Virus record (IMG/VR): IMGVR_UViG_3300012231_000008
Span: 4,334 to 68,333 of that record
Length of the DNA: 64,000 nt
Direction: 5' to 3' (one strand)
Source: a virus
Taxonomy: Duplodnaviria; Caudoviricetes
Part shown: in pieces, positions 39,196 through 54,129 of the stretch
Layout of the letters: every line of letters begins with the position of its first letter
Position numbering within the stretch: position 1 is the stretch's first letter
Made by a program: the position numbers and the translations under genes
Notes under the pieces: model-generated
What the model was told of the DNA's origin: nothing
What the model saw: only the letters and a program-made list of their open reading frames with translations
Database searches by the model: none

Positions 39196-42100
39196 ATGGC
39201 TGACCGCGAAGATCAACTCGACCCGCAGATCACCGAAGTCGATGAGACCCCGCCGTGGGCGGCGAGAGACACAGAACAGGCGGCTCCTCCACCCGAGGAG
39301 CCGCCTGTTGGCGTTTCTGAGACGGCAAGGCAGCTCGAGAGCGAGGGCTTCTTTGACCGCATGGCATTCAAGAAGTCGATCGACGACGCTGCGGCGCGCT
39401 CCGAGGCTGTCGCCAAGTCGGCCGGGTCGCAGGGCATTCTCGGCGAGAGCTTCGGCCTTCTGACGCCAGGAGAGTCGCGGGCATGGCTGAAGGAAGCGCG
39501 CACGGAGTTCGACGCCAAGGAGCAGCGCTGGGCGGAGTTCCGCTCCGGTCCCATTGAGCGTGGCCGGGCCAACGTCGAGGGTATGTTCGGCGACAAGTTC
39601 GCCGAGGCAACCAAGCCGACGCTGGAGGGTGCCGACGCCGACGTCGCCAAGCAGCGCGCAAAGCGCGGCCGTGAACTCTCCGAGATGGAGGCTGGAACCC
39701 GCGCGCCAGCGATGAAGACGCCGCTGCGGTCTGCAGTCGAGAACGTGCCCCAGGGCGCAATCGATCTCGCCGGCAGCATCGTCAAGGGCGTCGGCATCGG
39801 GGCCGGGTTCGCAGGCCGCGAGCTCGGCATGGACATCGCCCCCGACGACAACACCACCTATTCGCTGGGCAAGTGGATCGAAGCCAAGGGCAAGGAGCTA
39901 TTCCCTGGTGACATAGCTCGGCAGGAGGAGTTCACCCAGAAGCTGGCCCATGGCGCGGGCTCCATGATCGGGTTCTATGGCCCCGCTATCGCCGGCAAGC
40001 TGATTGGCGCCTCCGACAAGGCACTGATCGGCATCACCATGGCGACGGGCTCGCTGGCCGAAGGCTCGGAGACATACGAGCAGGCGCTCCAATCGGCCAA
40101 GGCTGGTCGCGATGTAAGCGAGGGTGCCAAGGCACTGGCGTTCATGGGCGGCCTAATTCTCGGCACGTGGGAAGCCCTGCCCATCGCACATATGTTCAAC
40201 CGTCGCATGGGCCTTGCCCGCGGCATGGCTATCCAGGGCCTTGAGGAAGGCCTGCAGGAAGGCGGCCAGACGCTCGGCGAGAACGTCATTGCCCAGACGC
40301 TGCATGATCCAGAGCGCCCGCTCACGCAAGGCGTGGGCGAGAGCATGGCGATCGGCAGCATTCTCGGCACCTTCATGCAGGGTGCGCAATACGCGGCATC
40401 CAAGCAGGCGAGGGTGCAGGCGAGGCCGCAGCCAGCGCCGGCGGCTACTCCTACGCCAGCCGTAGAGCCCCCGGCTGAGCCGGAGAAGCCCAAGCAGGAA
40501 ACCCCTGCCAATGCTTACGACGTCAAGCAGTTCTACGACGGGACCGAGGAGCCCAGCGCGGCCCTTGGCATCGCGGCGATGGCGGTGCGGAAGACGCCAG
40601 AGACGCCCGAGGATGAGCAACCATCCCTCGCCGACGAGATCGCCGCGGCCCAGCCGCAGCTCGAGCCCTGGCAGCAGAAGCTCTCCGAGACGCTGGTCGA
40701 GATCGCCAAGCAGACGGAGGCCAACCGTCCCGCGCTTGAACAGGATGTGGAAGCCAACCTGCCAACGTATACATCCGCCATCAAGGACGTGTACGCTGGG
40801 CACGGGTTGCCCTACGCCCTTGCGGACGATGCCGTTCGCAGCGTCGCCATCAACATGGCGCAAGGCCTAACCGCAGAGGAGGCGCTGAAGCGCTATGCCG
40901 CAGAAGGCTACGAGCAAGAAAGGGCGCCCCGCGCCCAAGGCGCGGGAACCAGCCCAACCTCTGCTGACGCCCGAGGAGCACGCCAAGGCAGCCCAGCAGC
41001 TCCGGGAGTGGGCAGCCTCGGAGACCGACTCCAAAGCAGCGCAGCGGCTCTACAGTCTGGCGGACCTAAACGAGGCGTTCAGCAAGCCGACGTCTCCGAC
41101 TACGAGCAACACTACCAGCGGGCTCTGAGGGCGAGCTTCCGGGCGATCGTCGCTTCCAGGCGACCCGCCAACGAATGGGGCAAGTTCCTCAAGCTCAAAC
41201 CGGACGAACTGAAGGCGCTGGTAGATGAGGCTGTGCGGGATGGACTGCTCAGGATCGACCGCAATGGCGTGATCCGGCGCACCAAGCTCGCCAAGGTCGC
41301 GCCCAAGGAAACGCCGATCCGCCCCGGCGAAGACATCGCCAACACCCCGCCAGATATCCGAGCGCGCGACGCCATCGCCAAGCGTGAGGAAGAGACCGGC
41401 AAGCAAATCGCACCCGACGTTCGCCGTTGGGCGCAGAACATCGAAGAGACTATCGGCCGGCCGGCGTTTGCCGAACAGATGTCGCTCATGCGGGAGGCGG
41501 CCCGCACGGGCGAGCTATCCCTGGCCGACATGCTCGACCTGACCGCCATGGTCGGGCTGCGGGATATCATTGTCGCTGGCAAAAACATCCAACTGTCCAA
41601 GATGACGAAGGCTGGGGCGCTTCTGGCCATCCAGCGCAAGCACGACATGCGGGTGCAGGAGCGGCAGGCTGCCATTGCCGCCGCCAAGTTCGAGTTCGAT
41701 ACCGGCATCAAGGCCATGGCGGTCAAGCGCCCTGGTCTGCCCGATGAGCGCGTGCGGCGCGGGATCGAGCGCAGCCGCATGGCTGACACTCTCCGCCAAC
41801 TGGCGACGGACGCCGGGGCAGCCCTCGGCGACGAAGCGGCGTTCCCGGCGGTGTTGCGGCGTTTGAAGGCCGCCGCAAAGAAGATGTCCAAGGCGGACGC
41901 CCTTGAACTTGCCAGACTTGTTGGCTATCAACCAAAATCGCGCACCACTAAGGCGCAGGCGCTCCAGTCGATTACGCTGCGCCATCAGGACATTGTAGAA
42001 AGCCGCGCACAGGCGCAAGCTATCGCCGAGGCTCAGGAGGCCGCCAATGCCGAGCGCCAAGCACTTCTCCAGTCTCAGGGAGCAGTACCTGAAGGAGAGC

Positions 42101-45100
42101 TTCCCGAAGGCGTATCAGAAACTGCAGGCGTCGGGGGAACTGGCGGAGCACCTGGAGCAGGTGGGCCAGGAGGCGGACGAGATGTGGCACGACCTGGAAG
42201 CCCAGATGTCGACGGCCAAGGATCTCCCGGAGAACTATCTGGAGAGGGTGCAGGAACTCGAGACGATACCCGAGAAGGTGCGCGAGATGGTGACGCGGGA
42301 ACTGATCTACGTTCCGCCCGCCCAGTCGTAGACACTGCGGCAGTCCGCGCCCAAGTCGAGGCCGACGCCGCCCGCGCCGAGCAGGCCCGCGCCGATCGCG
42401 TCGCCAACAACTACACCATCACCGACGCCGACGAGATCGGCAAGGGCGGCCCCAAGGCCAAGGTGCGCGCCAATCTGGCGGCCATCCGAACGCTGCGCCA
42501 GATCGAGGAAGAGAAGCGCCCGGCAACAGCCGGGGAGAAGAAAGTCCTCGTCAAGTACGTGGGCTGGGGCGCCTTCGCTCAGGACGTGTTCGCCACCCAC
42601 AAGCCTGAATGGGCCAAAGAGCGGGCAGAGTTGCAGAACCTTCTCAGCCCCGAGGAATACAAGTCCGCCCGCGCCTCCACCCTCAATGCCCATTTCACCT
42701 CGCCCGAGGTCATCAAGGGCATGTGGTCGGCGCTGGAATGGCTTGGCTTCAAGGGCGGCCGCGCCATCGAGCCGGCAGCCGGCATCGGCCACTTCATCGG
42801 CCTGCAGCCAGAGAACATGCGCGCGGATACCAACTGGACCGCGGTAGAGCTCGACAAGATATCCGGCGGCATCACCAAGGCGCTCTATGGCGCCTCCGAT
42901 GTGCGCGTGGGCGGGTTTGAGGAACAGGTTTGGCCCGACAACTACTTCGACCTGGCCGTCTCCAACGTGCCGTTCGGTGACTTCAAGATCGAGGATACCG
43001 AGCGCAAGGGTTACCTGATCCATGACTACTTCTTCGTCAAGGCGCTCGCCAAGGTGCGCCCCGGCGGCATCGTTGCGTTCATCACGTCTGCCGGCACGCT
43101 CGACAAGCAGGGCGGCGCGGCGCGGCGCGCCATGGACAAGCAGGGCACGTTCCTGGGCGCCATCCGCCTTCCCGGTGGCAACAAGGGCGCCTTCAAGGCC
43201 AACGCCGGAACGGACGTCACGACCGACATCGTCTTCTTCCGCAAGCGCATCCCCGGTGAACCCGTCGATGTGAACTCCGAGTGGCGTGATCTAGCCGAGG
43301 TCAATACGCCAGAGGGCAAGACCAGCATCAACGGCTACTTCGCCGCCAATCCCAAGATGATGCTTGGGAAGATGCGCCTCATCGGCACCATGTACGGCAA
43401 GGGCGAGCCGGTCCTGATCGGGCCGACCGACAACCTTGAATCCAGCATCGCCGAGGCTGCCCAGCGCATGCCCGAGGATGCCATGCTGCCGGCGACGACG
43501 TCGGCCGCGGCCTTCGAGGAGAAGGTAGACACCGAGGTCGATGCGATCAAGGAAGGCGCGTTCTATGCCAAGGACGGCCAGATCTTCCGCAAGATCACTG
43601 GCGTCGGCCATCCCCAGAAGCTGAACAAGGCCAACGCCGAGCGCGTCACCGGATTCATTGGTATGCGCGATACCGTCAACCGCATGCTGGCGATCCAGAG
43701 CGGCGCGGCCAAGGCCGCCGACGGCGAGATGGACAGTCTGCGGGCCGCTCTCAACGCGGACTACGACGCGTTCGTCAAGAAGTTCGGGCCGATCAACCTC
43801 ACCCACATCACCGAGACCAAGCGCAAGAAAGACGGCAAGGTCATCACGACCAGGCGCATGCCGAACTTCTCGCCGATCGAGGACGATAACGACGCCTACA
43901 AGGTGAAGGCGCTCGAGGTTTACGACGAGAAGACGCAGAAGGCCACAAAGGCTGCCATCTTCACCGAGGACGTTGTCGGTTCCTATACCCGCCCAGCCGT
44001 GACCGGCCCGTCCGACGCGCTCGCCGTATCTCTCAATGAGACGGGCCGCGTCGACATGGCGCTGATTGCCGATCAGCTTGGCGTCGGCGAAGCGGAAGCC
44101 GCAGCCGTTCTCGGTGATCGCGTATACCAGAACCCGGCGGGAGGCCAGTGGCAGACCGCAGCGCAGTACCTATCCGGCGACGTCGTCAAGAAGCTGGCGG
44201 ATGCGAAGGCCTCGGCAGAGCTTGACGAGAGCTATGCTCGCAACGTGACGGCCCTGGAGGAAGTGCAGCCCGAGCCTCTCTCGCGCGCCGAGATCACCGT
44301 GCCGTTCGGCGCCTCATGGGTGCCGGCTGAGGTGTATGAGGCGTTCCTGCAGGATGTTGTAGGTTCGGAGTTCAAGGTCACGCTCAACGAGGTGACAAAG
44401 CAGTGGCGCGTGGCGCAGTCCCGTCGTTCGTCGGAAGCAGCGCAAGCGCAGTGGGGAACCGACCGCAAGAGCGTTGGCGAGATCGTCGAGGCGGCGCTCA
44501 ACTCCAAGCCGATCATCATCACCGACAAGCAGCGCGATGGTAACTCTGTCCGCGACATAGCGGGCGAGACGGCGGCCCGCGCCAAGGTCGAGCTACTGCG
44601 CGAGGCATTCACCGGCCAGACCTTCCCCGGCGCTCCGGCGGCCGTCGGCGGCTGGGTGTGGAATGACGATGCCCGCGCCATGCGTCTCGAGGAGCTTTAC
44701 AACCTGGGCTTCAACCGCATCGTCAAAGAAGATCATGACGGCGCGCATGCGACGTTCCCTGGAGTGGCGCGCGTTGTTACCTTCCCCGATGGCGCCACCG
44801 GCACCATCAACCTGACGCCGGCCCGCACCAGCGCAATCTGGCGCATCATCCAGAACGGCAACACGCTGATCGACCACGTCGTCGGCGCCGGCAAGACCTG
44901 GACTTCCATCATGGCCGTGATGGAGATGAAGCGGCTCGGCATGGTTCGCCGGCCCATGTTCGTCGTGCCGAACCACATGCTGCATCAGTTCTCCAATGAG
45001 TTCCTGCAGGCGTATCCGGCTGCCAAGTTGCTGGTAGCGACCAAGGACAACATGAGCGCTGCAAAGCGCAAGGAGTTCGCCGCCAAGGCTGCTGCCGAGA

Positions 45101-48100
45101 AGTGGGACGGCATCATCATCACGCATAGCGCGTTTGGCCGCCTACGCATGCGCGATGAGGCCTACGTCGCGTACTACGAAGAAGCCATCGAGAGGATGAT
45201 CGAGGCCAAGGATCGGGCTGCCACAGAGGAAGGCAAGGATAGCGCCACAGTCAAGGACATCGAGAAGGCGCGCAAGCGGCTGAAGGCCAAGCTCGAGAAG
45301 TTCACGGCTAAGGAAAAGAAGGATCTCGGCATCACCTTCGAGGAGCTGGGCGTCGACCATCTCACGGTGGACGAAGCGCACCTCTTCAAGAACCTGTGGT
45401 TCCCGACCAGGCATACGCGCGTGCGCGGCATCTCCAACGCGACCGAGAGCCAGCGCGCGACCGATCTCTACATCAAGATCAGGAACCTGGAGAAGTCCAA
45501 GCCAGGACGCTCGACGCTGTTCCTAACGGGAACGCCGCTGTCGAACACGATGGCGGAAGTCTACACCATGATGCGCTACCTGCAGCACGATACGCTGGAG
45601 GAGTACGGCATCGGCGAGTTCGATAGCTGGGCGCAGACGTTCGGCAACATCAAAACCAAGACCGAGCTGGCCCCGAACGGACGCGACTTCCGAGACACCA
45701 CGTCGTTCGGCGAGTTCGTGAATATCCCCGAGCTGGCCACGCTCTACGGGCGCATTGCCGACACGCAGACGGCTGAGAGCCTGAAACTGCCGCGGCCCAA
45801 GCTGAAGGGCGACAAGCCCATCGTTGTCGAGACCGAGCTTGCCCCGAGCGAGGAGCAGTTCGTTCAAGACCTGATCGCCAAGATGGAGTCGCTGAAGGGT
45901 AAGAGACCAGAGCGCGGCTCCCCCAATTTCCTCAGCCTGTTCACACAGGGATTGCAGGTCGGAACTGACTTCCGGCTGGTCGACCCGAGCGCGTCGTACA
46001 ATCCCAACGGCAAGATCGCCAAGGCGGTCGACAACATCTTCTCCGTCTGGGAGCGCGGCAACAAAGACGAGAAGACGCCCGACAAGGCGCAGCTCGTGTT
46101 CCTCGACATGGGTGTGCCCGGTTCCAAGGGAGGCAAGCGCATAGCGGCCAAGGCCGCCGAGGCGACGGAAGAGCCTATCGATGCCGTGCGCCGCGGGCTG
46201 GCCGACGTCGAGGAAGACGCTGGCGAGCAGCTACAGGAAGAGGCCAGCGAGGAAGATGCCGAGGCCGAGGCTCTCCTAGCCGGCAAGTTCAACCTCTACC
46301 AGGACATCAAGGATCACCTGATCGAGCGCGGCATCCCCGCCGATCAGATCGCCTTCATCCACGACGCCAAGAACGACGAGCAGAAGGCCAAGCTGTTCGA
46401 CGCGGTGCGCGAGGGCAAGGTGCGTATTCTGCTGGGCTCGTCCGCCAAGATGGGCGTCGGCACCAACGTGCAGAAGCGTCTGGTTGCCATGCATCACATC
46501 GATGCGCCGTGGAAGCCTGCCGACGTTGAGCAGCGTGACGGCCGCATCCTTCGCCAGGGCAACAAGAACCCCGAAATCGAAATCTACCGCTACGTGACCA
46601 AGCGGAGCTTCGACAGCTACCGCTGGCAGATCCTGGAGAACAAGAGCCACTTCATTGGCCAGTTCCGGGCCGGCGCCCGCGGCGTGCGCATTGCGACCGA
46701 TATCGATGCGCCATTGCCGGAGGCAGCCGAGCTCAAAGCAGCGGCCACGGGCGACCCGCGTATCATCGAACATGCCGATCTGTCGCGTGAGGTGCGCGTG
46801 CTTGATGCACAGCGAGCAGCCCATCTGGGTGGCGCCGTGCGTGCCAAGTCCGCTCTGGTGCAGGCGAGAGCGCGCATTGAGTCGATGCGCAAGCACCTGG
46901 AGGTCTACAACCAGGACGCAGCCAAGGTTCGGGACCTCAAGGGCGACAACTTCAGCGTCGCACTGGACCTCGCCAAGGGCACGCAGACCGTTACCGAGCG
47001 CAAGAAGGCCGGCGAGGCGGTCAAGGCCTACCTGACGTCGCTGGCGGAGCGTTCCTACTACGGTGCGCAGGACTTCGACCTGGGCGAAATCTCCGGGTTT
47101 CGGATGCAGGGCAAGGTGCGGAAGGACTCGTTCGGAGATGGTTTCGTCGTCAAACCGGAAATCTCCTTTGCTGGCACCTACGAAGGCCAGGAGTTCGCCC
47201 TCAATGCCGAGACCAATCCCGTCACCCTGATCCAGCGCTACGAGCGGCTGGCTGGCACGCCCCTGGAGCGCCAGGCCGCCGCCAATGCCACCGTTGCCGG
47301 CCTTGAGCAGGAAATCCCCAAGCTCGAGGCGAAGACCGCAGCCACGGCCTTCCCGAAGGAAGCTGAGCTAGCCGACAAGCGCAAGCGGCTGAATGATCTC
47401 GAGCGAGCGCTGCGGCCTAGAGACCCGGCGGCGCAAGCCAGCGAGGACGCCTACGTCGAGCAGGCGATGCGCAACCTCAAGGCCACCAGCCGCACGGCGG
47501 CAGGCGTGGTCGACACCTCAGCATCTGCCGGCAAGGCTGGCCAGATGGCGGAGGGACTGACCGGCGAGGGCGCGGCTGCCGCGGCAACCCGCAACTTCGA
47601 AGGGGTGATCCGCAGCATCTACCGCAATCGCGACCGGATCGCGGGCCTATCCGCACGGGAGCTTGCCCAGGAGATCGACCAGATCGCGATCGCCATCAAC
47701 AAGGGCATCCTGAAGGAAGGCGCGCTCTACCGTGCCGACGACTCGACCAAGTTCCCGTACACGGCGGTGGCGGACCTTGGGGCGGCGCACCAGCAGTTCG
47801 CCCAGGAACTGAGCCAGCGTCTCAACGATCCCAATGCCGATCCGGTCGAGACCGCGGCATGGGTCGAGTGGCGCGCGAACCTCACGGATCACTTCTGGGC
47901 CGACGGCGTGGGCAAGACCAGCAAGGCACTGGCTGCCATCCCCTTGATGCGCGCCAACCAGCCCTTGCCGCTGTACCGGAGCAACAAGGAGTTCTTCGCA
48001 AACGCCAGCCGGCAGCAATACAACCCAAGCGAGGGTGGCAGTGCCTATCGCGATGCGGCATTCGACAAGTTCGTCGATTACTACCGCAGCCTGATGCCGG

Positions 48101-51100
48101 GCGCCGATCCGACGCTCGAGGAGATGGAGCGCATCGGGCAGGAGGCGTTCGCGTCTCCCGAGTATCAGGCTGCTCTAGCGGCGGCCAAGGCACAGCCTCA
48201 GACGATGCCGAAGGAGTTTCAGGTCAGCAACCCAGATATCGATGCGTTGTTGGCTTGGTCCGCATCTCGGGGCATCGAAGCTAACATTAATGCGACAATC
48301 GACAAGGCGCGCTCTTACGTCGCCGGCGGCGAGGTTGCCAACGAGCGTAAGGCAGTCGTCTTGCTGGGCTTGCCGGGCTCCGGCAAGTCGACCATATCCG
48401 GCGGGTTTGCCAACCTGACCAAGTCTGCCGTGCTCAATGGCGATGACACCAAGGAGTTCATTCCTGAGTACGCCAACGGGCTCGGCTCGATTGCCGTGCA
48501 CGAGGAAGCGAGCTTCATCACCAAGACGGCGCTATCGCGCCTGATGAACGAGGGTGCCAACGTCGTTCTGGAGAAGACCGGCTCTAGCCCTGGCTCAATC
48601 ACCGGCCTGATCAATACACTGCGTGGTAAGGGTTACAGCGTTCAGATTGTCTTGGCGGATGTGCCCAAGGCTCTAGCCATGCATCAGACCGTCGAGAGGT
48701 TCAAAAAGAACGGCCGCGTAGTCCCGCCTGACTACTTTGGCACGTTGAACACGAACGACGTTTTTGCTATCCTGAAACAGGAAGGAGCCGCTGATGGCTA
48801 TACAGTCGTCGAACGGAAAACGGCCAAGGGCGCATGGCGCTTCACAGCCCGTGATAGCGCCTTCGCCGGCATCGCCGATGCCATCGAACGATCCTCCGGT
48901 GGGATCGCTCGAGTGGTTCGAGGCGGTGGAGAAGCGGGCGGACAACCTGTCGGACCTGTACGAGAAGGCGCTGAAGGCCAAGGCCAAGTAGAGCCGGACG
49001 ACACGTCTCTCCTCGCGCTCGACGGTATCCTCCCCGAGTTCACCCCACAGTTCCAAGCCGCAGCATCTGAGTTCGCGCCAGCGCTTGAGCGCGAACTGCG
49101 AGCCATGCTGCCGGGGGACATCCCCGTCAAGATGGTCGATAAGCTGTTCCGCAGCGGCTATGCCGCCTACGGCGGCTATGACCCGCTGAAGCGCACCATC
49201 AAGGTGGCAACGCGCTACGGACGCGGGACGGCGACCCTGAAGGGCTTCCACGAGGTCGGCCACGCTCTACGCGAGTACGGTCGCAGGTTCGGCGAGATCG
49301 CCAAGGGCCTCTATACCGCCGAAGAGTGGACGATCCTTACCGAGCGTGCCCGCAAGACCGGCATCAAGGTCAGCAACGAGATTGCCTACCGTTCTATGTA
49401 TTCGAAGGACATTGCGCGGGAACGGCTCACGGGGGACAAGCAGCGGGACCGCATGGCGGAACTGCTCGACCAGGAGCGCGTGTTCAATCTGGCGGAGCAG
49501 TGGGCGGCAGGCACCAACTTCGGCGCCAAGGTCAACACGCTTCTCGAGCGCATCGGGCTGTTCTTCCAGGCCGTAGGGAATGCGCTGCGGGGGCTTGGCT
49601 TCCAGACCGCCAACGACGTGTTCCAGCGCATGGTGTCAGGTGAGATCGCCGCTCGCGCCGGACAGCGGCAGGGAGCGGTATCGCTGCCGCCGGTCATCAC
49701 TCCACAAGAAATCCTACTCTCCTCCCCTGAAGGGCAAGAGGCCCTTGGTAGTATGGGGCTGATGGCGATTGGTGAACAGAGCGAAGGTGCCGGGCTTGCG
49801 GCTATAGCATCTTCCCCCACCACTCCCCGCCCCTTCACTCTTTCAATTGATGGAAGAGGAGAAGTCTCTACTAGAGAGAAGGAGGATGGGAATAGGGTTA
49901 GGACTTATAAGGTTTTTGGGCGTGAGACCGAGGCGTTCATCCTTTCAGAACAGCCAGACGGAAGCTGGGAACTCTCATTCTTCAACGGAGGGAAGGACTC
50001 GGCCCTGATCATCTCCGACATTGAGTCCGACCTTGGCAATCGCATTGGCCCATCTGGATGGCTGACGCCGGAGGCATACGAGCAGTGGAAGGCAACCGCA
50101 CCTGAGAAGGTGGCAGACCATCAGGACGTCCGCGGCATGTGGGCGAGCCCGAAGGCGCTGGAGCTGGCGCAGGCGGTGGCCCAGGCTGGTGGCAGGGAGC
50201 TCGCCGCTCTCAAGTCCGATGAAGGCGGAAGGATAGAGCCGCAGCTTCCCTGGCCTACGGAAGGCGTCAGGGCGGCATCCATGCCGCATCCCGTCAAGAT
50301 TGGCTCGCAGGCGACGACGTCGTCGCTGGAGGCGCCAGAGCTTGGCCTGTCCGACCTGGTCGAGGAGTTGACGGATACGCTTGGCCTGACGGTGCGTCAT
50401 GGCAGGCTCGATCCAGGACTGAAGGCGAGGGCCGGCAGGGCTGGCGCACGCGTGTTCGGGCAGTTCTCGGCCAGCACCGGCATCACCCGCGCAGCCATCC
50501 CCAACGACTTCCCCGTGCTTGTGCATGAGGGTGGGCATGCGCTGGAGGTGCGTCCTTCGACCAGGGATCCGCTTGCCCAACTCAAAACTACGCACGCGAT
50601 GGAGTTGGTGCCGAACAACGGCAACCCGACCGCAGAAGAGTTGAGCGAGGGCTTCGCGGAGTGGTTCCGAGTGTATCTGACCGATCTGCCAACGGCCCGC
50701 GCGACGGCTCCCAACTTCCTCAAGGACTTCGAGGACATGCTGGATGCTGAGGAGCCCGGCATGCTCGAGGCCCTGGAGAAGGTCCAGGATGGCTTCCAGG
50801 CTCTGCTGAAGGCGTCGCCGGCCGGCGCCGTGCGTTCCCGCATCCAGTCCACCGAGCGCCCAGGCAAACTGGGCGAGATCAAGGAGGAGCTGCAGGAGAA
50901 GGGTTTCCGCAAGACGCTCTCCGACAAGCTCTATTCCTTCTTCCACAGCTACGCAGACCGCTGGCACGGCCTCAAGGTTGCCGTCGAGCAAATGCTGAGG
51001 GAGGGCGGTAGGCAGGCAGGCATCAACCTCGCTGAGGGCGAGAAGCTGGTCCTGAAGGCCATCAACGACCCCTACAAGCGGGCGCGGCTGGCCGCCCAGG

Positions 51101-54100
51101 CCAAGGCGCAGGCAACAGCCACCTTGCTCAACGGCGTGCGCCTGAGGGGCATGGCTGACCCCGTTGGCCCATCCTATCAGGATGCGCTTGATGCAGCCTT
51201 CGGCGGCAACCGGCGCTCGCAGTGGAACGAGGAGAAGGCGGAGCTGTTCGGCTCCTACTTGATCTCGCGCAGCATGTTGGCGGAGTTCGATCGGTACGAC
51301 CGCGGCGAGTTGGAGAACCCGCCGGATCAGTTGATCCCCCGCGACGTGTGGGCCAAGGCCAAGGACGACATCGAGAAGGCGCACCCTGAGTTCGCCCGCG
51401 CTGCACCGATCCTGTATCAGTTCCAGCAGAACATGCTGAAGCTGATGTATCAGGAAGGGTTCCTCACGGCCGAGGACTACCAGACCTATTCCAACCGGGT
51501 CGACTACGTCCCGCGCAACCGCGTGATGCCGGACAAGTCTCCGTCGTCGGTCGGCGCCGCCCGCGGCACCAACAAGCGCAAGGTGTTCATGCGGTTCCAG
51601 GGATCGACCCTGGACTTCATCAACCCGCTGGAATCGATTGCCCAGAACGTCTACGCCCAGCAAGGCCGGATCACCCTCAACGGAACGATCCGGGCTCTCG
51701 ACAATCTTGCGCGCTGGGCAGGCCCGGCCGGCGGTCCGATCGCAGAGCGTCTCCCGGCCAGGGACATGAAGGGCGTTCGGGTCGACGTGCGCGAGGCCAT
51801 GAAGGATGCCGTCAAGCAGCTCAACCCCGACGACGCTCAAGACCTGATCGACATGGTCGACGAGCTGTTCGACGAGGATGCGGCTGCCACCATCTTCCGC
51901 GCCACCGACATCAACGAGAAGGGCGAGAAGATCGTCTACCTCTACGAAGATGGTAAGCGCGTGCCGATCCGTATGGGCGACCATGACATCGGCAAGGACA
52001 TCTTCGACGCATTCACGGCGGTCGGCACCGACAACGCCAACATGGCGTTCGAGCTTGCCACCATGGGCACGCAGGCTTTGCGCTTCGGCGTCACCAAGGC
52101 CGTGTCCTACGTGTTTAACAACTTCCTGCGTGACCAGTTGCAGACCTGGACGCTGAGCGAGAACTACACGCCATTCGTCACGGGCACCAAGGGCTTGAAG
52201 CACGTCATTGCCAATGACGATGTGTCCAAGCGCGCGGCAGCCTTCGGCGTGATGATGGGCGGCATCGACACCAATCTGCAAGAGAGCGCTGCCCGTGATC
52301 GGGACATCAAATCCCTGCGACGCAAAGGCTTCTGGGCGGTCCCGCTAAACTGGCCGAGGGCATTGCATCCCGTGGAGTGGTCGTGGAAAGCGTTCATGCG
52401 CACCATGGAGATCACCGAGGCGGGAACGCGCGTCGGGCACATGAAGGCAATCCAGGATCGCGCGCTTGCCGATGGCATGACGCCAGAAGAGGCGGCTTGG
52501 GAAGGGGCCTACGGCGCCAACGACGTGATGCCGTTCGATCGTTCCGGCTCCAAGATGATGGTGATTGCCCGGCTTGTGGCGTTCCTCAACGCTGCCGTGC
52601 AGGGCATGAGCGCGGCAGGCCGCACGATCAGCGGAGAGCGCAACACCTACACCAACTACCGTGATGCCGTGTCGCCATACCTGCGGGCCGGCATGGGTCA
52701 GCCCGTGTCGGTTGCCGATAGGGCGGCTATCCCGAACGCGGCCAAGGTGTGGGTGAAGATGCTGACCATGGGCATCGTCGGCGTATCGCTGGCGGCGCTC
52801 TACTCTGGCGACGACGACGAGAGCAAGGAGTACCAGGAGTTCAACGACTACATGCGTGCCACCCATTGGTTCTTCAAGATCAACGGGACCTGGTGGCGCT
52901 TCCCGAAGCCGTTCGAGCTCGCAGCTATCTCCAATGCTATGGAAGCTGGATTTGCCGGCTACTGGAAGCAGGATCCCCGCGCGCTGAAGACCTTCGCTCA
53001 ATCCCTCAAGCACACGATGGTCCCGCCGCATGAGCTGCAGGCACTCAAGCTCTACTACGAGATGATGACCGGCAAGGACACCTTCCGCGACAAGGACATC
53101 GTCGGCGGAGACCTGCGGGCATTGGCGCCTGAGTACCAGTTCAACGCCTACACGTCGGAACTCGGGCGCATGGTGGGCAAGGTGATGGGTTGGTCGCCAG
53201 CGCAGATCGACCACTTCATGGCTGGTGCCCTCGGCACCTTGGGCCGCGATCTTCTCAACGCCTCGGACTACATGCTGCCGCGCATCAACAAGATGACCGG
53301 CGGCATCATCCCCGGCGTGTCGCAGACCCCGCGCGCCGAGAAGTCGCTCGAGGATATGTGGTTCGTATCCAGGTTCAGCCGGCGTGCCGGCCGCGGCGCG
53401 CTGTCAGTGGAGGAGTTCTGGAAGCAGGCAAGCCGCGACGGCGGCAAGTACACGCAGGCCGCGGAGACCTACAAGCGCCTTGTCGCAGCCGGCCGCGCCG
53501 ATCCTCGCCTCAACTTCGAGGTCAAGTCCTTCATGGAACGCCTTACCGACGATCAGAAAGCGTATGCGTACCTCGAAGGCGGCTGGTTCGACGAGAAGGA
53601 CAAGGACTTGCACCCTGTCCACCGCTCGCGCCAGGTGCTGCAGGCCATCTCCGGCATCCGCAAGGACATCCTGATGGACAACCTCGTGAAGCGGAGCACG
53701 GTCCCCGATCGGCGCCACAAGTTCCGTGAGCCTGAGAAGGTCAGCCTGTCGCCTTCGGATCAGCGCGTCGTCAACGAGATCCTGGAAGACCTGTCGATGC
53801 GAGAGGCGCGCAACGCGCTGATCGTGACGGGGCATCCTGGATGGGCGCAGAAGGAAATCCTGGGCACCGACGGGCTGGTCAAGGAGCTGCGGTCCAAGGC
53901 TCCAGCCGTTGCCGAGGAACTCGAGGCTAGGCTGACGAAGGGCCGCACCAAAGTCGTCCCGTTCGAGAAGGTGCAGGAGGCATGGCCTGAAGCGCGGGCG
54001 CGTATTCTGAAGGAAGGCCCGGAGGCCAGTCTGGCTGATCTACGCGGCTACGTTCCGCCGTCAGGGACGCTGGAGATCTTGATCACAAAGCCGAAGCCTA

Positions 54101-54129
54101 AGCGCGGCGGCTCACTAACGATCCAGTGA
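39196..54129 (+). CDS. Giant polyvalent ejection protein: DarB-like N6-methylase + SNF2 helicase + Fic-like + zeta-like kinase + two zincin motifs + LPD38-like C-terminus
   Basis: EPAAGIG aa1192, NVPF aa1257, DHVVGAGKT aa1893, DEAH aa2059, HFWADGVGKTSK aa2899, GLPGSGKST aa3058, HEVGH aa3352, HEGGH aa3777, WRFPKPFEL near end. Confidence 0.9.
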   Translation: MADREDQLDPQITEVDETPPWAARDTEQAAPPPEEPPVGVSETARQLESEGFFDRMAFKKSIDDAAARSEAVAKSAGSQGILGESFGLLTPGESRAWLKEARTEFDAKEQRWAEFRSGPIERGRANVEGMFGDKFAEATKPTLEGADADVAKQRAKRGRELSEMEAGTRAPAMKTPLRSAVENVPQGAIDLAGSIVKGVGIGAGFAGRELGMDIAPDDNTTYSLGKWIEAKGKELFPGDIARQEEFTQKLAHGAGSMIGFYGPAIAGKLIGASDKALIGITMATGSLAEGSETYEQALQSAKAGRDVSEGAKALAFMGGLILGTWEALPIAHMFNRRMGLARGMAIQGLEEGLQEGGQTLGENVIAQTLHDPERPLTQGVGESMAIGSILGTFMQGAQYAASKQARVQARPQPAPAATPTPAVEPPAEPEKPKQETPANAYDVKQFYDGTEEPSAALGIAAMAVRKTPETPEDEQPSLADEIAAAQPQLEPWQQKLSETLVEIAKQTEANRPALEQDVEANLPTYTSAIKDVYAGHGLPYALADDAVRSVAINMAQGLTAEEALKRYAAEGYEQERAPRAQGAGTSPTSADARGARQGSPAAPGVGSLGDRLQSSAAALQSGGPKRGVQQADVSDYEQHYQRALRASFRAIVASRRPANEWGKFLKLKPDELKALVDEAVRDGLLRIDRNGVIRRTKLAKVAPKETPIRPGEDIANTPPDIRARDAIAKREEETGKQIAPDVRRWAQNIEETIGRPAFAEQMSLMREAARTGELSLADMLDLTAMVGLRDIIVAGKNIQLSKMTKAGALLAIQRKHDMRVQERQAAIAAAKFEFDTGIKAMAVKRPGLPDERVRRGIERSRMADTLRQLATDAGAALGDEAAFPAVLRRLKAAAKKMSKADALELARLVGYQPKSRTTKAQALQSITLRHQDIVESRAQAQAIAEAQEAANAERQALLQSQGAVPEGELPEGVSETAGVGGTGGAPGAGGPGGGRDVARPGSPDVDGQGSPGELSGEGAGTRDDTREGARDGDAGTDLRSARPVVDTAAVRAQVEADAARAEQARADRVANNYTITDADEIGKGGPKAKVRANLAAIRTLRQIEEEKRPATAGEKKVLVKYVGWGAFAQDVFATHKPEWAKERAELQNLLSPEEYKSARASTLNAHFTSPEVIKGMWSALEWLGFKGGRAIEPAAGIGHFIGLQPENMRADTNWTAVELDKISGGITKALYGASDVRVGGFEEQVWPDNYFDLAVSNVPFGDFKIEDTERKGYLIHDYFFVKALAKVRPGGIVAFITSAGTLDKQGGAARRAMDKQGTFLGAIRLPGGNKGAFKANAGTDVTTDIVFFRKRIPGEPVDVNSEWRDLAEVNTPEGKTSINGYFAANPKMMLGKMRLIGTMYGKGEPVLIGPTDNLESSIAEAAQRMPEDAMLPATTSAAAFEEKVDTEVDAIKEGAFYAKDGQIFRKITGVGHPQKLNKANAERVTGFIGMRDTVNRMLAIQSGAAKAADGEMDSLRAALNADYDAFVKKFGPINLTHITETKRKKDGKVITTRRMPNFSPIEDDNDAYKVKALEVYDEKTQKATKAAIFTEDVVGSYTRPAVTGPSDALAVSLNETGRVDMALIADQLGVGEAEAAAVLGDRVYQNPAGGQWQTAAQYLSGDVVKKLADAKASAELDESYARNVTALEEVQPEPLSRAEITVPFGASWVPAEVYEAFLQDVVGSEFKVTLNEVTKQWRVAQSRRSSEAAQAQWGTDRKSVGEIVEAALNSKPIIITDKQRDGNSVRDIAGETAARAKVELLREAFTGQTFPGAPAAVGGWVWNDDARAMRLEELYNLGFNRIVKEDHDGAHATFPGVARVVTFPDGATGTINLTPARTSAIWRIIQNGNTLIDHVVGAGKTWTSIMAVMEMKRLGMVRRPMFVVPNHMLHQFSNEFLQAYPAAKLLVATKDNMSAAKRKEFAAKAAAEKWDGIIITHSAFGRLRMRDEAYVAYYEEAIERMIEAKDRAATEEGKDSATVKDIEKARKRLKAKLEKFTAKEKKDLGITFEELGVDHLTVDEAHLFKNLWFPTRHTRVRGISNATESQRATDLYIKIRNLEKSKPGRSTLFLTGTPLSNTMAEVYTMMRYLQHDTLEEYGIGEFDSWAQTFGNIKTKTELAPNGRDFRDTTSFGEFVNIPELATLYGRIADTQTAESLKLPRPKLKGDKPIVVETELAPSEEQFVQDLIAKMESLKGKRPERGSPNFLSLFTQGLQVGTDFRLVDPSASYNPNGKIAKAVDNIFSVWERGNKDEKTPDKAQLVFLDMGVPGSKGGKRIAAKAAEATEEPIDAVRRGLADVEEDAGEQLQEEASEEDAEAEALLAGKFNLYQDIKDHLIERGIPADQIAFIHDAKNDEQKAKLFDAVREGKVRILLGSSAKMGVGTNVQKRLVAMHHIDAPWKPADVEQRDGRILRQGNKNPEIEIYRYVTKRSFDSYRWQILENKSHFIGQFRAGARGVRIATDIDAPLPEAAELKAAATGDPRIIEHADLSREVRVLDAQRAAHLGGAVRAKSALVQARARIESMRKHLEVYNQDAAKVRDLKGDNFSVALDLAKGTQTVTERKKAGEAVKAYLTSLAERSYYGAQDFDLGEISGFRMQGKVRKDSFGDGFVVKPEISFAGTYEGQEFALNAETNPVTLIQRYERLAGTPLERQAAANATVAGLEQEIPKLEAKTAATAFPKEAELADKRKRLNDLERALRPRDPAAQASEDAYVEQAMRNLKATSRTAAGVVDTSASAGKAGQMAEGLTGEGAAAAATRNFEGVIRSIYRNRDRIAGLSARELAQEIDQIAIAINKGILKEGALYRADDSTKFPYTAVADLGAAHQQFAQELSQRLNDPNADPVETAAWVEWRANLTDHFWADGVGKTSKALAAIPLMRANQPLPLYRSNKEFFANASRQQYNPSEGGSAYRDAAFDKFVDYYRSLMPGADPTLEEMERIGQEAFASPEYQAALAAAKAQPQTMPKEFQVSNPDIDALLAWSASRGIEANINATIDKARSYVAGGEVANERKAVVLLGLPGSGKSTISGGFANLTKSAVLNGDDTKEFIPEYANGLGSIAVHEEASFITKTALSRLMNEGANVVLEKTGSSPGSITGLINTLRGKGYSVQIVLADVPKALAMHQTVERFKKNGRVVPPDYFGTLNTNDVFAILKQEGAADGYTVVERKTAKGAWRFTARDSAFAGIADAIERSSGGIARVVRGGGEAGGQPVGPVREGAEGQGQVEPDDTSLLALDGILPEFTPQFQAAASEFAPALERELRAMLPGDIPVKMVDKLFRSGYAAYGGYDPLKRTIKVATRYGRGTATLKGFHEVGHALREYGRRFGEIAKGLYTAEEWTILTERARKTGIKVSNEIAYRSMYSKDIARERLTGDKQRDRMAELLDQERVFNLAEQWAAGTNFGAKVNTLLERIGLFFQAVGNALRGLGFQTANDVFQRMVSGEIAARAGQRQGAVSLPPVITPQEILLSSPEGQEALGSMGLMAIGEQSEGAGLAAIASSPTTPRPFTLSIDGRGEVSTREKEDGNRVRTYKVFGRETEAFILSEQPDGSWELSFFNGGKDSALIISDIESDLGNRIGPSGWLTPEAYEQWKATAPEKVADHQDVRGMWASPKALELAQAVAQAGGRELAALKSDEGGRIEPQLPWPTEGVRAASMPHPVKIGSQATTSSLEAPELGLSDLVEELTDTLGLTVRHGRLDPGLKARAGRAGARVFGQFSASTGITRAAIPNDFPVLVHEGGHALEVRPSTRDPLAQLKTTHAMELVPNNGNPTAEELSEGFAEWFRVYLTDLPTARATAPNFLKDFEDMLDAEEPGMLEALEKVQDGFQALLKASPAGAVRSRIQSTERPGKLGEIKEELQEKGFRKTLSDKLYSFFHSYADRWHGLKVAVEQMLREGGRQAGINLAEGEKLVLKAINDPYKRARLAAQAKAQATATLLNGVRLRGMADPVGPSYQDALDAAFGGNRRSQWNEEKAELFGSYLISRSMLAEFDRYDRGELENPPDQLIPRDVWAKAKDDIEKAHPEFARAAPILYQFQQNMLKLMYQEGFLTAEDYQTYSNRVDYVPRNRVMPDKSPSSVGAARGTNKRKVFMRFQGSTLDFINPLESIAQNVYAQQGRITLNGTIRALDNLARWAGPAGGPIAERLPARDMKGVRVDVREAMKDAVKQLNPDDAQDLIDMVDELFDEDAAATIFRATDINEKGEKIVYLYEDGKRVPIRMGDHDIGKDIFDAFTAVGTDNANMAFELATMGTQALRFGVTKAVSYVFNNFLRDQLQTWTLSENYTPFVTGTKGLKHVIANDDVSKRAAAFGVMMGGIDTNLQESAARDRDIKSLRRKGFWAVPLNWPRALHPVEWSWKAFMRTMEITEAGTRVGHMKAIQDRALADGMTPEEAAWEGAYGANDVMPFDRSGSKMMVIARLVAFLNAAVQGMSAAGRTISGERNTYTNYRDAVSPYLRAGMGQPVSVADRAAIPNAAKVWVKMLTMGIVGVSLAALYSGDDDESKEYQEFNDYMRATHWFFKINGTWWRFPKPFELAAISNAMEAGFAGYWKQDPRALKTFAQSLKHTMVPPHELQALKLYYEMMTGKDTFRDKDIVGGDLRALAPEYQFNAYTSELGRMVGKVMGWSPAQIDHFMAGALGTLGRDLLNASDYMLPRINKMTGGIIPGVSQTPRAEKSLEDMWFVSRFSRRAGRGALSVEEFWKQASRDGGKYTQAAETYKRLVAAGRADPRLNFEVKSFMERLTDDQKAYAYLEGGWFDEKDKDLHPVHRSRQVLQAISGIRKDILMDNLVKRSTVPDRRHKFREPEKVSLSPSDQRVVNEILEDLSMREARNALIVTGHPGWAQKEILGTDGLVKELRSKAPAVAEELEARLTKGRTKVVPFEKVQEAWPEARARILKEGPEASLADLRGYVPPSGTLEILITKPKPKRGGSLTIQ
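40895..41128 (+). CDS. Candidate nested ORF in alternative frame of giant gene
   Basis: GAGGAGG 12 nt upstream; amphipathic helices; host frame is low-complexity here. Confidence 0.4.
   Translation: MPQKATSKKGRPAPKAREPAQPLLTPEEHAKAAQQLREWAASETDSKAAQRLYSLADLNEAFSKPTSPTTSNTTSGL
42047..42331 (+). CDS. TnpV-like protein nested in alternative frame of giant gene
   Basis: AGGAGG 6 nt before ATG; LREQYLKE...GELAEHL...REMVTRELIY matches TnpV pattern as recalled. Confidence 0.7.
   Translation: MPSAKHFSSLREQYLKESFPKAYQKLQASGELAEHLEQVGQEADEMWHDLEAQMSTAKDLPENYLERVQELETIPEKVREMVTRELIYVPPAQS
48794..48991 (+). CDS. Candidate nested ORF directly after the zeta-like kinase domain
   Basis: AAGGAG 6 nt before ATG; C-terminal helix SLEWFEAVEKRADNLSDLYEKALK. 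Confidence 0.5.
   Translation: MAIQSSNGKRPRAHGASQPVIAPSPASPMPSNDPPVGSLEWFEAVEKRADNLSDLYEKALKAKAK

Follow-up and report, generated by a model that had tools for sequence, protein, structure and literature searches.

A 64,000-nucleotide stretch of DNA from a 68-kb IMG/VR virus (record IMGVR_UViG_3300012231_000008), referred to here as the window, carries one protein-coding gene wholly inside another. The outer gene encodes a giant polyvalent, DarB-like virion protein. The inner one, of 94 codons, is assigned to the TnpV family and is read from the same strand in the +1 frame, across a linker of the giant protein. Dual coding of this kind, with internal initiation of the nested gene, is very probable, and a helper role of the small protein is speculative. 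Comparison of sequences confirms a real, unannotated gene within a gene; its translation, function and origin we infer. Bases 42047-42331 would encode two proteins on the same strand, linker residues in frame 0 and a four-helix TnpV protein in the +1 frame.

The nested gene and the conservation of both frames

The nested open reading frame (ORF) begins with ATG and ends with TAG, its own frame is flanked by stops on both sides, and six nucleotides (nt) separate its ATG from an AGGAGG Shine-Dalgarno (SD) sequence. The preliminary description of this DNA, made from the letters alone, had reported exactly this 94-aa ORF, out of frame with the giant gene and with AGGAGG 6 nt upstream, and its coordinates stand. 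The likeness to TnpV proposed there was borne out by a hidden Markov model (HMM) comparison with Pfam, in which the protein matches PF14198 (TnpV) with 56.9 bits (E=2.5e-15), the gathering cut-off being 27 bits. A six-frame search of the virus record returned 56.8 bits for the same model. The alignment places residues 7-87 of the nested protein on profile positions 26-111 of 111. With a profile of four phage copies, 1,111 cluster representatives were recovered at E<=1e-3; most of the best 150 of these are 90-125 aa long. The family is acidic, with a median net charge of -4 and a pI of 5.2. The features expected of a TnpV-family member are found together, namely the Pfam score, a small all-alpha protein and carriage by mobile elements (the IMG/VR virus, phages and plasmids), and on these sequence grounds the assignment of the nested ORF to the family is well supported.

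The AlphaFold2 (AF2) model of the nested protein, for which a 35-sequence alignment (A2) was the input, consists of four helices with a pLDDT of 96.1 and a pTM of 0.82. A Foldseek search of the model against the PDB gave no match at E<=0.001, and the A2 profile found nothing below E 0.06 among PDB sequences. The best structure by VIA-align was 2apl_A (PG0816), with a Z of 7.0 and a root-mean-square deviation of 2.1 over 65 residues, and was rejected as lying under the meaningful level for helical bundles. In the BFVD the best match of the model was Q8W6J4_2 (probability 1.0, TM 0.67), an unnamed piece of a long protein.

The giant frame over the ORF had been taken in the preliminary description for a low-complexity linker, as would be expected when the other frame carries the constraint, and composition agrees: in this phage the linker has 13% hydrophobic residues, 71% G/P/A/D/R/E and an entropy of 3.3 bits, against 29%, 47% and 4.0 bits in the 300 residues after it. 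Across homologues the linkers are 6-13% hydrophobic with 67-78% G/P/A/D/R/E, and the corresponding values of the next 300 residues are ~30% and ~45%. The linker, disordered in appearance, connects the N-terminal part of the giant protein with its LPD36-methylase-helicase module. The position directly before a DarB-like methylase domain, also claimed there, is confirmed by the PHROG match of that domain (Table 1).

Nested copies recur in related DNA. Three related IMG/VR phages, whose methylases are 53-65% identical, have a PF14198-positive +1-frame ORF directly before the methylase, and closer copies, 41-99% identical, are nested on metagenome contigs (L016, L017, L021, L022, L023, L027 and L045-L049). 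In the 12 distinct nested homologues, 30-79% identical, there are 0 stops in the giant frame over the ORF, and this frame is likewise open in the 99% copy (L021). A check of the TnpV frame of the homologues for stops, which would have spoken against the preliminary description, found none. A 27% tblastn match in L002 lacked PF14198 support and was discarded as spurious.

Free-standing homologues provide a natural control for the openness of the giant frame. The copy in L018/L025 is 67% identical to the nested protein by global alignment (70% by BLASTP), and L018 has 2 stops in the giant-equivalent frame. The copy in L028, an alphaproteobacterial metagenome-assembled genome (MAG), is 52% identical by global alignment and has 1 stop. 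Both use more T at third positions. When synonymous codons were resampled by each phage's own codon usage, the giant frame remained open in 1.4-18% of trials per locus, the fraction for this phage being 0.036.

The pattern of substitution changes exactly at the borders of the ORF, from a peak at giant codon position 3 in the flanks to the order expected of TnpV coding. In comparison with L016, mismatches by giant codon position 1/2/3 number 19/10/55 in the downstream flank and 23/18/8 inside the ORF, where their order is TnpV position 3 > 1 > 2. The phase switch at the borders is also seen in five other comparisons (L017, L022, L023, L007 and the free-standing L018). When the same DNA is translated both ways, the TnpV reading has the greater amino-acid identity in 13 of 13 comparisons, and third positions are nearly saturated between loci (42 of 95 differ from L007). 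G+C by codon position is 0.88/0.65/0.33 in the overlap versus ~0.62/0.43/0.85 in the flanks. Finally, all 19 of 19 nested homologues have an ATG at the homologous position with an SD core at -18..-4; elsewhere in the same giant gene an SD core precedes 27 of 82 +1-frame ATGs. The recurrence of ORF, ATG and SD core is far beyond chance.

Substitution phase, identity and linker composition agree that the TnpV frame carries the constraint, as had been supposed. Comparison between loci shows that selection maintains both frames, the TnpV frame by ordinary purifying selection on its amino-acid sequence and the giant frame mainly for the absence of stops. Given this constraint on the TnpV frame and the low complexity of the giant frame, the latter is therefore a linker which needs only to stay open. 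Features of a same-strand nested gene pair are thus present: the whole ORF is enclosed, it has its own ATG and ribosome-binding site, and both frames are under selection.

Occurrence in cultured phages and plasmids

With the window protein, tblastn gave only weak matches, to 4 records of the phage collection and 1 record of the plasmid collection, and the homologues in cultured phages were found with profiles only. An HMM built from A2 picks out, at 15-27 bits, ORFs that agree in location and frame with the nested one; they are those of Bcep22 (27.5 bits), Ralstonia phage Eline, Agrobacterium phage Atu_ph08, Pseudomonas phage Itty13, Microcystis phage Mwe-JY07 and the IMG/VR locus L008. In the cultured phages the match is a short +1-frame ORF just before the methylase domain, inside a coding sequence (CDS) annotated as 'DarB-like'. 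Homology of these ORFs was drawn from profile-profile comparison, the ORFs of Bcep22 and the Ralstonia phages aligning with A2 by hhalign at 94.8% probability (E=5e-8). The Bcep22-type nested ORFs have their ATG behind AAGGAGG or AGGAGG. By tblastn the Bcep22 ORF is found in 41 phage records (10 Burkholderia, 31 Ralstonia), always under the giant CDS and separately annotated in 0 of them. The nested gene is thus unannotated in 41 of 41 records, well-studied therapeutic-candidate phages being among them. Annotation pipelines discard nested same-strand genes by design. Overall, the hosts of cultured phages with the nested ORF include Burkholderia, Ralstonia, Pseudomonas and Agrobacterium.

In the record of Itty13 (L032, NC_070969.1 2119-10961, reverse complement), gp01-gp03 are annotated opposite to an 8.8-kb open frame, which contains the nested ORF as well as the homology to the DarB-like methylase. 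The strand of the annotation in this region looks to be wrong.

The layout extends to a plasmid of the Firmicute Subdoligranulum variabile (OY725857.1; L050 8025-17708), which has an unannotated polyvalent ORF of 3,227 aa with LPD11 and methylase-helicase parts. Its +1 frame contains, at L050 8929-9282, a full-length TnpV of the canonical kind (150 bits), over a G/P/A/D/R/E linker, 3.6 kb before the methylase and after an N-terminal domain that looks ArdC-N-like by eye. Plasmid TnpV genes are otherwise mostly free-standing and annotated. PF14198 was found in 2 of 401 genomes from the class of G005, an alphaproteobacterial MAG, too few for nested and free-standing copies to be compared in number.

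Expression and alternative readings

The conserved ATG, SD core and intact frame argue for continued translation of the nested ORF, and internal initiation appears to be the best reading of how it would come about. The small protein would be made from its own ATG and SD sequence on the late mRNA of the giant gene, and would appear together with the giant protein. A sigma-70-like hexamer pair, a candidate internal promoter by consensus match, lies inside the giant gene ~110 nt 5' of the nested ATG (1 site versus 0.0 expected from shuffles). JC1 gp69, the giant protein of a relative, has been identified as a virion protein by mass spectrometry with 51 unique peptides (PMC9144972). The annotated proteins of JC1 exclude the nested ORF, so that this study could not have listed its product (PMC9144972).

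Alternatively, the TnpV segment might form the C-terminal end of a shorter protein, produced when ribosomes shift to the +1 frame just ahead of it, the giant protein being the product of unshifted ones. The nested ORF always stops right past the domain, as this would suggest, and in Sinorhizobium phage PBC5 (AF448724.1, L029 4906-6143) orf33 ends in a related TnpV-like segment in frame with it, the methylase frame being -1 to orf33. However, the simplest account of the PBC5 layout is that its record, of 2002, contains a 1-nt indel: from 4906 onwards, 580 nt upstream, the methylase frame is open, orf23 is annotated with a start (6143) that falls within the methylase homology, and the PBC5 relative Atu_ph08 has one continuous giant ORF in which the segment is an ATG-started +1 ORF. 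PBC5 was accordingly rejected as a genuine fused form; judged by the open upstream frame and the Atu_ph08 layout, this record probably shows a single giant gene broken by a 1-nt indel. Furthermore, a +1-frame stop stands 4-16 codons upstream of the nested ATG in several homologues, at 4 codons in L016 and L017, 6 in L048 and 7 in L005, and there is therefore little room for a programmed +1 frameshift, almost none for a shift site in these four. No conserved slippery motif was noticed, without a systematic search, and the combination of an open upstream +1 frame with a conserved shift site, by which a programmed +1 frameshift is recognized, was not found. Free-standing homologues of 90-100 aa exist, and the homologous ATG with its SD core in all 19 nested copies speaks for initiation at that site. 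A ribosomal shift is thus a most unlikely source of the TnpV product.

It could also be supposed that the +1 ORF is an untranslated relic, either of an old tnpV gene or of an in-frame domain overrun by the giant gene, which has not yet decayed. At ~62% G+C, the value of the window, long accidental open frames are common, and the case for a +1-frame product is built from comparison rather than from expression. Nevertheless, ORF, ATG, SD core and stop are intact across lineages near synonymous saturation, and both the substitution phase and the amino-acid identity show that the TnpV frame is under purifying selection. From the alignment a fold is predicted with confidence, and the remaining alternative frame has 3-8 stops over the same stretch in the nine loci counted. 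A decaying relic is exceedingly improbable in view of these results.

The giant ORF itself might be discontinuous, with tnpV standing between a separate upstream gene and a separate gene for the methylase-helicase part, and with the frame across tnpV open by accident. Gene callers on short contigs do split tnpV from the downstream part, and the N-terminal part can be separate: in L003 (1-4558) the part matching window residues 233-409 sits in a separate upstream ORF. Domain order also varies among relatives; the zeta-toxin domain of L005 (4828-5349) adjoins the nested gene upstream, and in the window giant protein it stands 2,000 residues after it. This view has hardly any likelihood, however, as the giant frame is open in 12 of 12 nested sequences at a resampled chance of 1.4-18% each and also in the Bcep22, Ralstonia, Atu_ph08, Itty13 and Mwe-JY07 loci, stops are present in that frame of the free-standing copies, the coding-phase signals of the giant frame reach the ORF from both sides, between 42331 and 42406 neither a stop nor a start preceded by a ribosome-binding site was noticed in that reading frame of the giant gene, and cultured relatives are annotated with single CDSs of 4,500-4,600 aa, JC1 gp69 being present in virions.

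Several points weigh against an internally initiated TnpV gene as the reading of this DNA. The first 25 positions of the Pfam TnpV model are left uncovered by the match, and none of the solved structures reached by Foldseek, VIA-align or the profile search of PDB sequences is convincingly like the model. The ORFs of the cultured phages score 13-17 bits, under the Pfam cut-off, and in the Bcep22 group, where both frames may be constrained, the phase switch is less marked (22/12/16). Homologues share descent, so that joint probabilities, such as the product of open-frame probabilities of ~3e-6 for the four most divergent phages, overstate independence and are indicative only. The support for continued translation is comparative.

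Origin, proposed role and genomic setting

The nested layout is common to distant phage genera and a Firmicute plasmid, and it did not, therefore, arise in this phage. The TnpV reading is probably the older and the linker the younger, because free-standing relatives are many and the fold is globular, and the giant frame is unconserved and of low complexity. According to the preliminary description, a formerly separate tnpV-darB pair had been fused by read-through. Where tnpV is free-standing, the gene upstream of it is read in the -1 frame relative to tnpV, which is the relative frame of the nested layout, and ends 14-26 nt inside it; loss of one stop could therefore begin a fusion by read-through. 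This part of the proposal fits. Against a simple pair, in the loci examined no free-standing tnpV copy is followed by a darB-like gene, the domains upstream of the nested gene vary among relatives (zeta-toxin in L005, a separate N-terminal ORF in L003), and the layout is far older than this phage. On the sequence evidence a read-through origin is plausible. In the free-standing loci L025 (5610-6026) and L028 (5079-6014), the neighbours are without informative Pfam matches; a PAS/Cache sensor lies further upstream in L025.

The direction of overprinting appears to be an unusual one, a younger disordered linker lying over an older globular gene. It suggests that swallowing neighbours without losing them is one route by which giant polyvalent genes become larger. 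Long same-strand genes that lie wholly inside another gene and are backed by comparison are, to our knowledge, rare in bacteria and in phages. The present one is set apart from other embedded genes by its length, by the direction in which overprinting apparently went and by its breadth, which takes in both phages and conjugative elements.

Two classical cases offer a comparison. In phage lambda, Rz1 is a whole +1-frame gene within the same-strand gene Rz, with its own start on one mRNA; its product, a short lipoprotein, binds that of the host gene, and Rz and Rz1 form a dedicated two-part machine. In Bacillus subtilis, comS is a regulatory gene of 46 codons out of frame within srfAB, present in one species group, with its own ribosome-binding site on the same transcript. 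The nested tnpV is like Rz1 in being a whole same-strand +1-frame gene with its own start inside a phage gene, and like comS in being small, in having a ribosome-binding site of its own and in lying within a giant multidomain gene. Unlike Rz, the host gene here is a 15-kb multidomain gene whose frame is merely a linker at this point, and the nested family is also free-standing. Unlike that of comS, the overlap covers 94 codons and is kept across phage genera and in a Firmicute plasmid. An embedded Rz1 class has been described in Bcep22-like phages (PMC9144972). The same study treats the JC1 giant gene as a single CDS and discusses the embedded Rz1, with no gene inside gp69 (PMC9144972).

TnpV proteins of Tn4451/Tn4453-type mobilisable transposons, plasmids and integrative and mobilizable elements (IMEs) belong to the same family by HMM and are likewise small, all-helical and carried on mobile elements. 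The classical genes are free-standing, annotated 'TnpV protein' and of 110-125 aa, whereas the phage copy has no counterpart of profile positions 1-25, lies out of frame within another gene and belongs to a phage virion module. A PF14198 gene is carried by 16 of 24 Faecalibacterium MOBQ2 IMEs, where its function is unknown and a part in transfer is suspected (PMC12084326). No biochemical function of TnpV is described in the papers found, and no published description of TnpV nesting in polyvalent genes was found. The paper in which polyvalent proteins were defined describes the module of LPD36, methylase and superfamily 2 (SF2) helicase, as known for DarB, and mentions no TnpV, overlap or frameshift (PMC5512222).

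DarB of phage P1 has the same LPD36-methylase-SF2 helicase dyad as the module downstream of the nested gene. It has the accessory proteins Hdf, DarA, DdrA, DdrB and Ulx, and the small gene ulx adjoins darB. In the first 24 kb of P1, darB and ulx included, no TnpV-like ORF was found in any frame (best 3.3 bits), and Ulx is ruled out as a counterpart by homology, with <=3.3 bits across the 24 kb. A functional analogy between Ulx and the nested protein might nonetheless be drawn.

As to the role of the small protein, its acidity would fit protein binding better than an excisionase-like binding of DNA, and a DNA-binding excisionase-like factor is unlikely. The protein could be a protein-binding helper of the polyvalent protein, acting as an assembly or packaging chaperone or as an inhibitor in the producer cell; this is a speculative and tentative proposal. 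A broader form of it, in which TnpV-like proteins are dedicated cis-encoded partners of polyvalent transfer proteins, translated from the mRNA of the latter and serving as chaperone, packaging adaptor or producer-cell inhibitor, is about as speculative. If it were true, linker nesting would be a normal and ancient way in which the TnpV family is carried in phages and conjugative elements, a function would be given to TnpV, an orphan for 30 years, and the DarB-type antirestriction of Bcep22, JC1 and the Ralstonia phages would have a hidden component. The nesting links the orphan family to DNA- and protein-delivery machinery.

The coordinates of the features are collected in Table 1. The long ORFs of the window, candidate virion genes included, are mostly on the + strand, and among the genes of the window the comparison with family libraries covered the giant gene. 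Its protein has Pfam matches to ResIII, SNF2, Helicase_C, Zeta_toxin and LPD38. The methylase part matches the PHROG family phrog_10089, 'DarB-like antirestriction' (E=1.2e-154), and phrog_11801, 'DNA methyltransferase', also matches. An N-N-Y-T-I-T-D segment at 42406, ~75 nt past the nested stop, opens the LPD36-like domain, and GKGG follows ~10 residues into this conserved block, which fits the LPD36 motif GxG[GAS] N-terminal to the methylase. The domain and its motif have been described (PMC5512222); no match to a Pfam model for LPD36 was obtained in the giant protein. The methylase is followed by an SF2 helicase, which is the DarB-like domain order, and by blastn the giant gene matches genes that are annotated as DarB-like in Bcep22 and in Ralstonia phages. 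The giant protein may, on the analogy of P1 DarB and JC1 gp69, be credited with a virion-packaged antirestriction activity.

Table 1. Features of the giant gene and of the gene nested in it (positions in the window)
Feature	Position	Strand	Basis
Giant polyvalent (DarB-like) virion protein gene, 4,977 aa, frame 0	39196..54129	+	Single open frame, Pfam, PHROG
Sigma-70-like hexamer pair TTGCCA-18-CAAAAT, candidate internal promoter	41909..41938	+	Consensus match only
Shine-Dalgarno AGGAGG of the nested gene	42035..42040	+	Read from sequence
Linker, giant-frame residues 951-1045	42046..42330	+	Composition; free of stops
Nested TnpV-family gene, 94 aa, +1 frame	42047..42331	+	PF14198 score, conservation, substitution phase, AF2 model
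LPD36-like N-terminal domain (GKGG) and N6-adenine methylase (NVPF) of the DarB-like module	42355..43806	+	PHROG, motifs in translation
SF2/SNF2-type helicase part of the DarB-like module	44821..46560	+	Pfam ResIII 1876-1984, SNF2-rel_dom, Helicase_C 2379-2455

Two further +1-frame ORFs, 40895-41128 (77 aa) and 48794-48991 (65 aa), overlie low-complexity stretches of the giant gene. Neither has a Pfam match. G+C by codon position is anomalous at both, less so than at the TnpV ORF.

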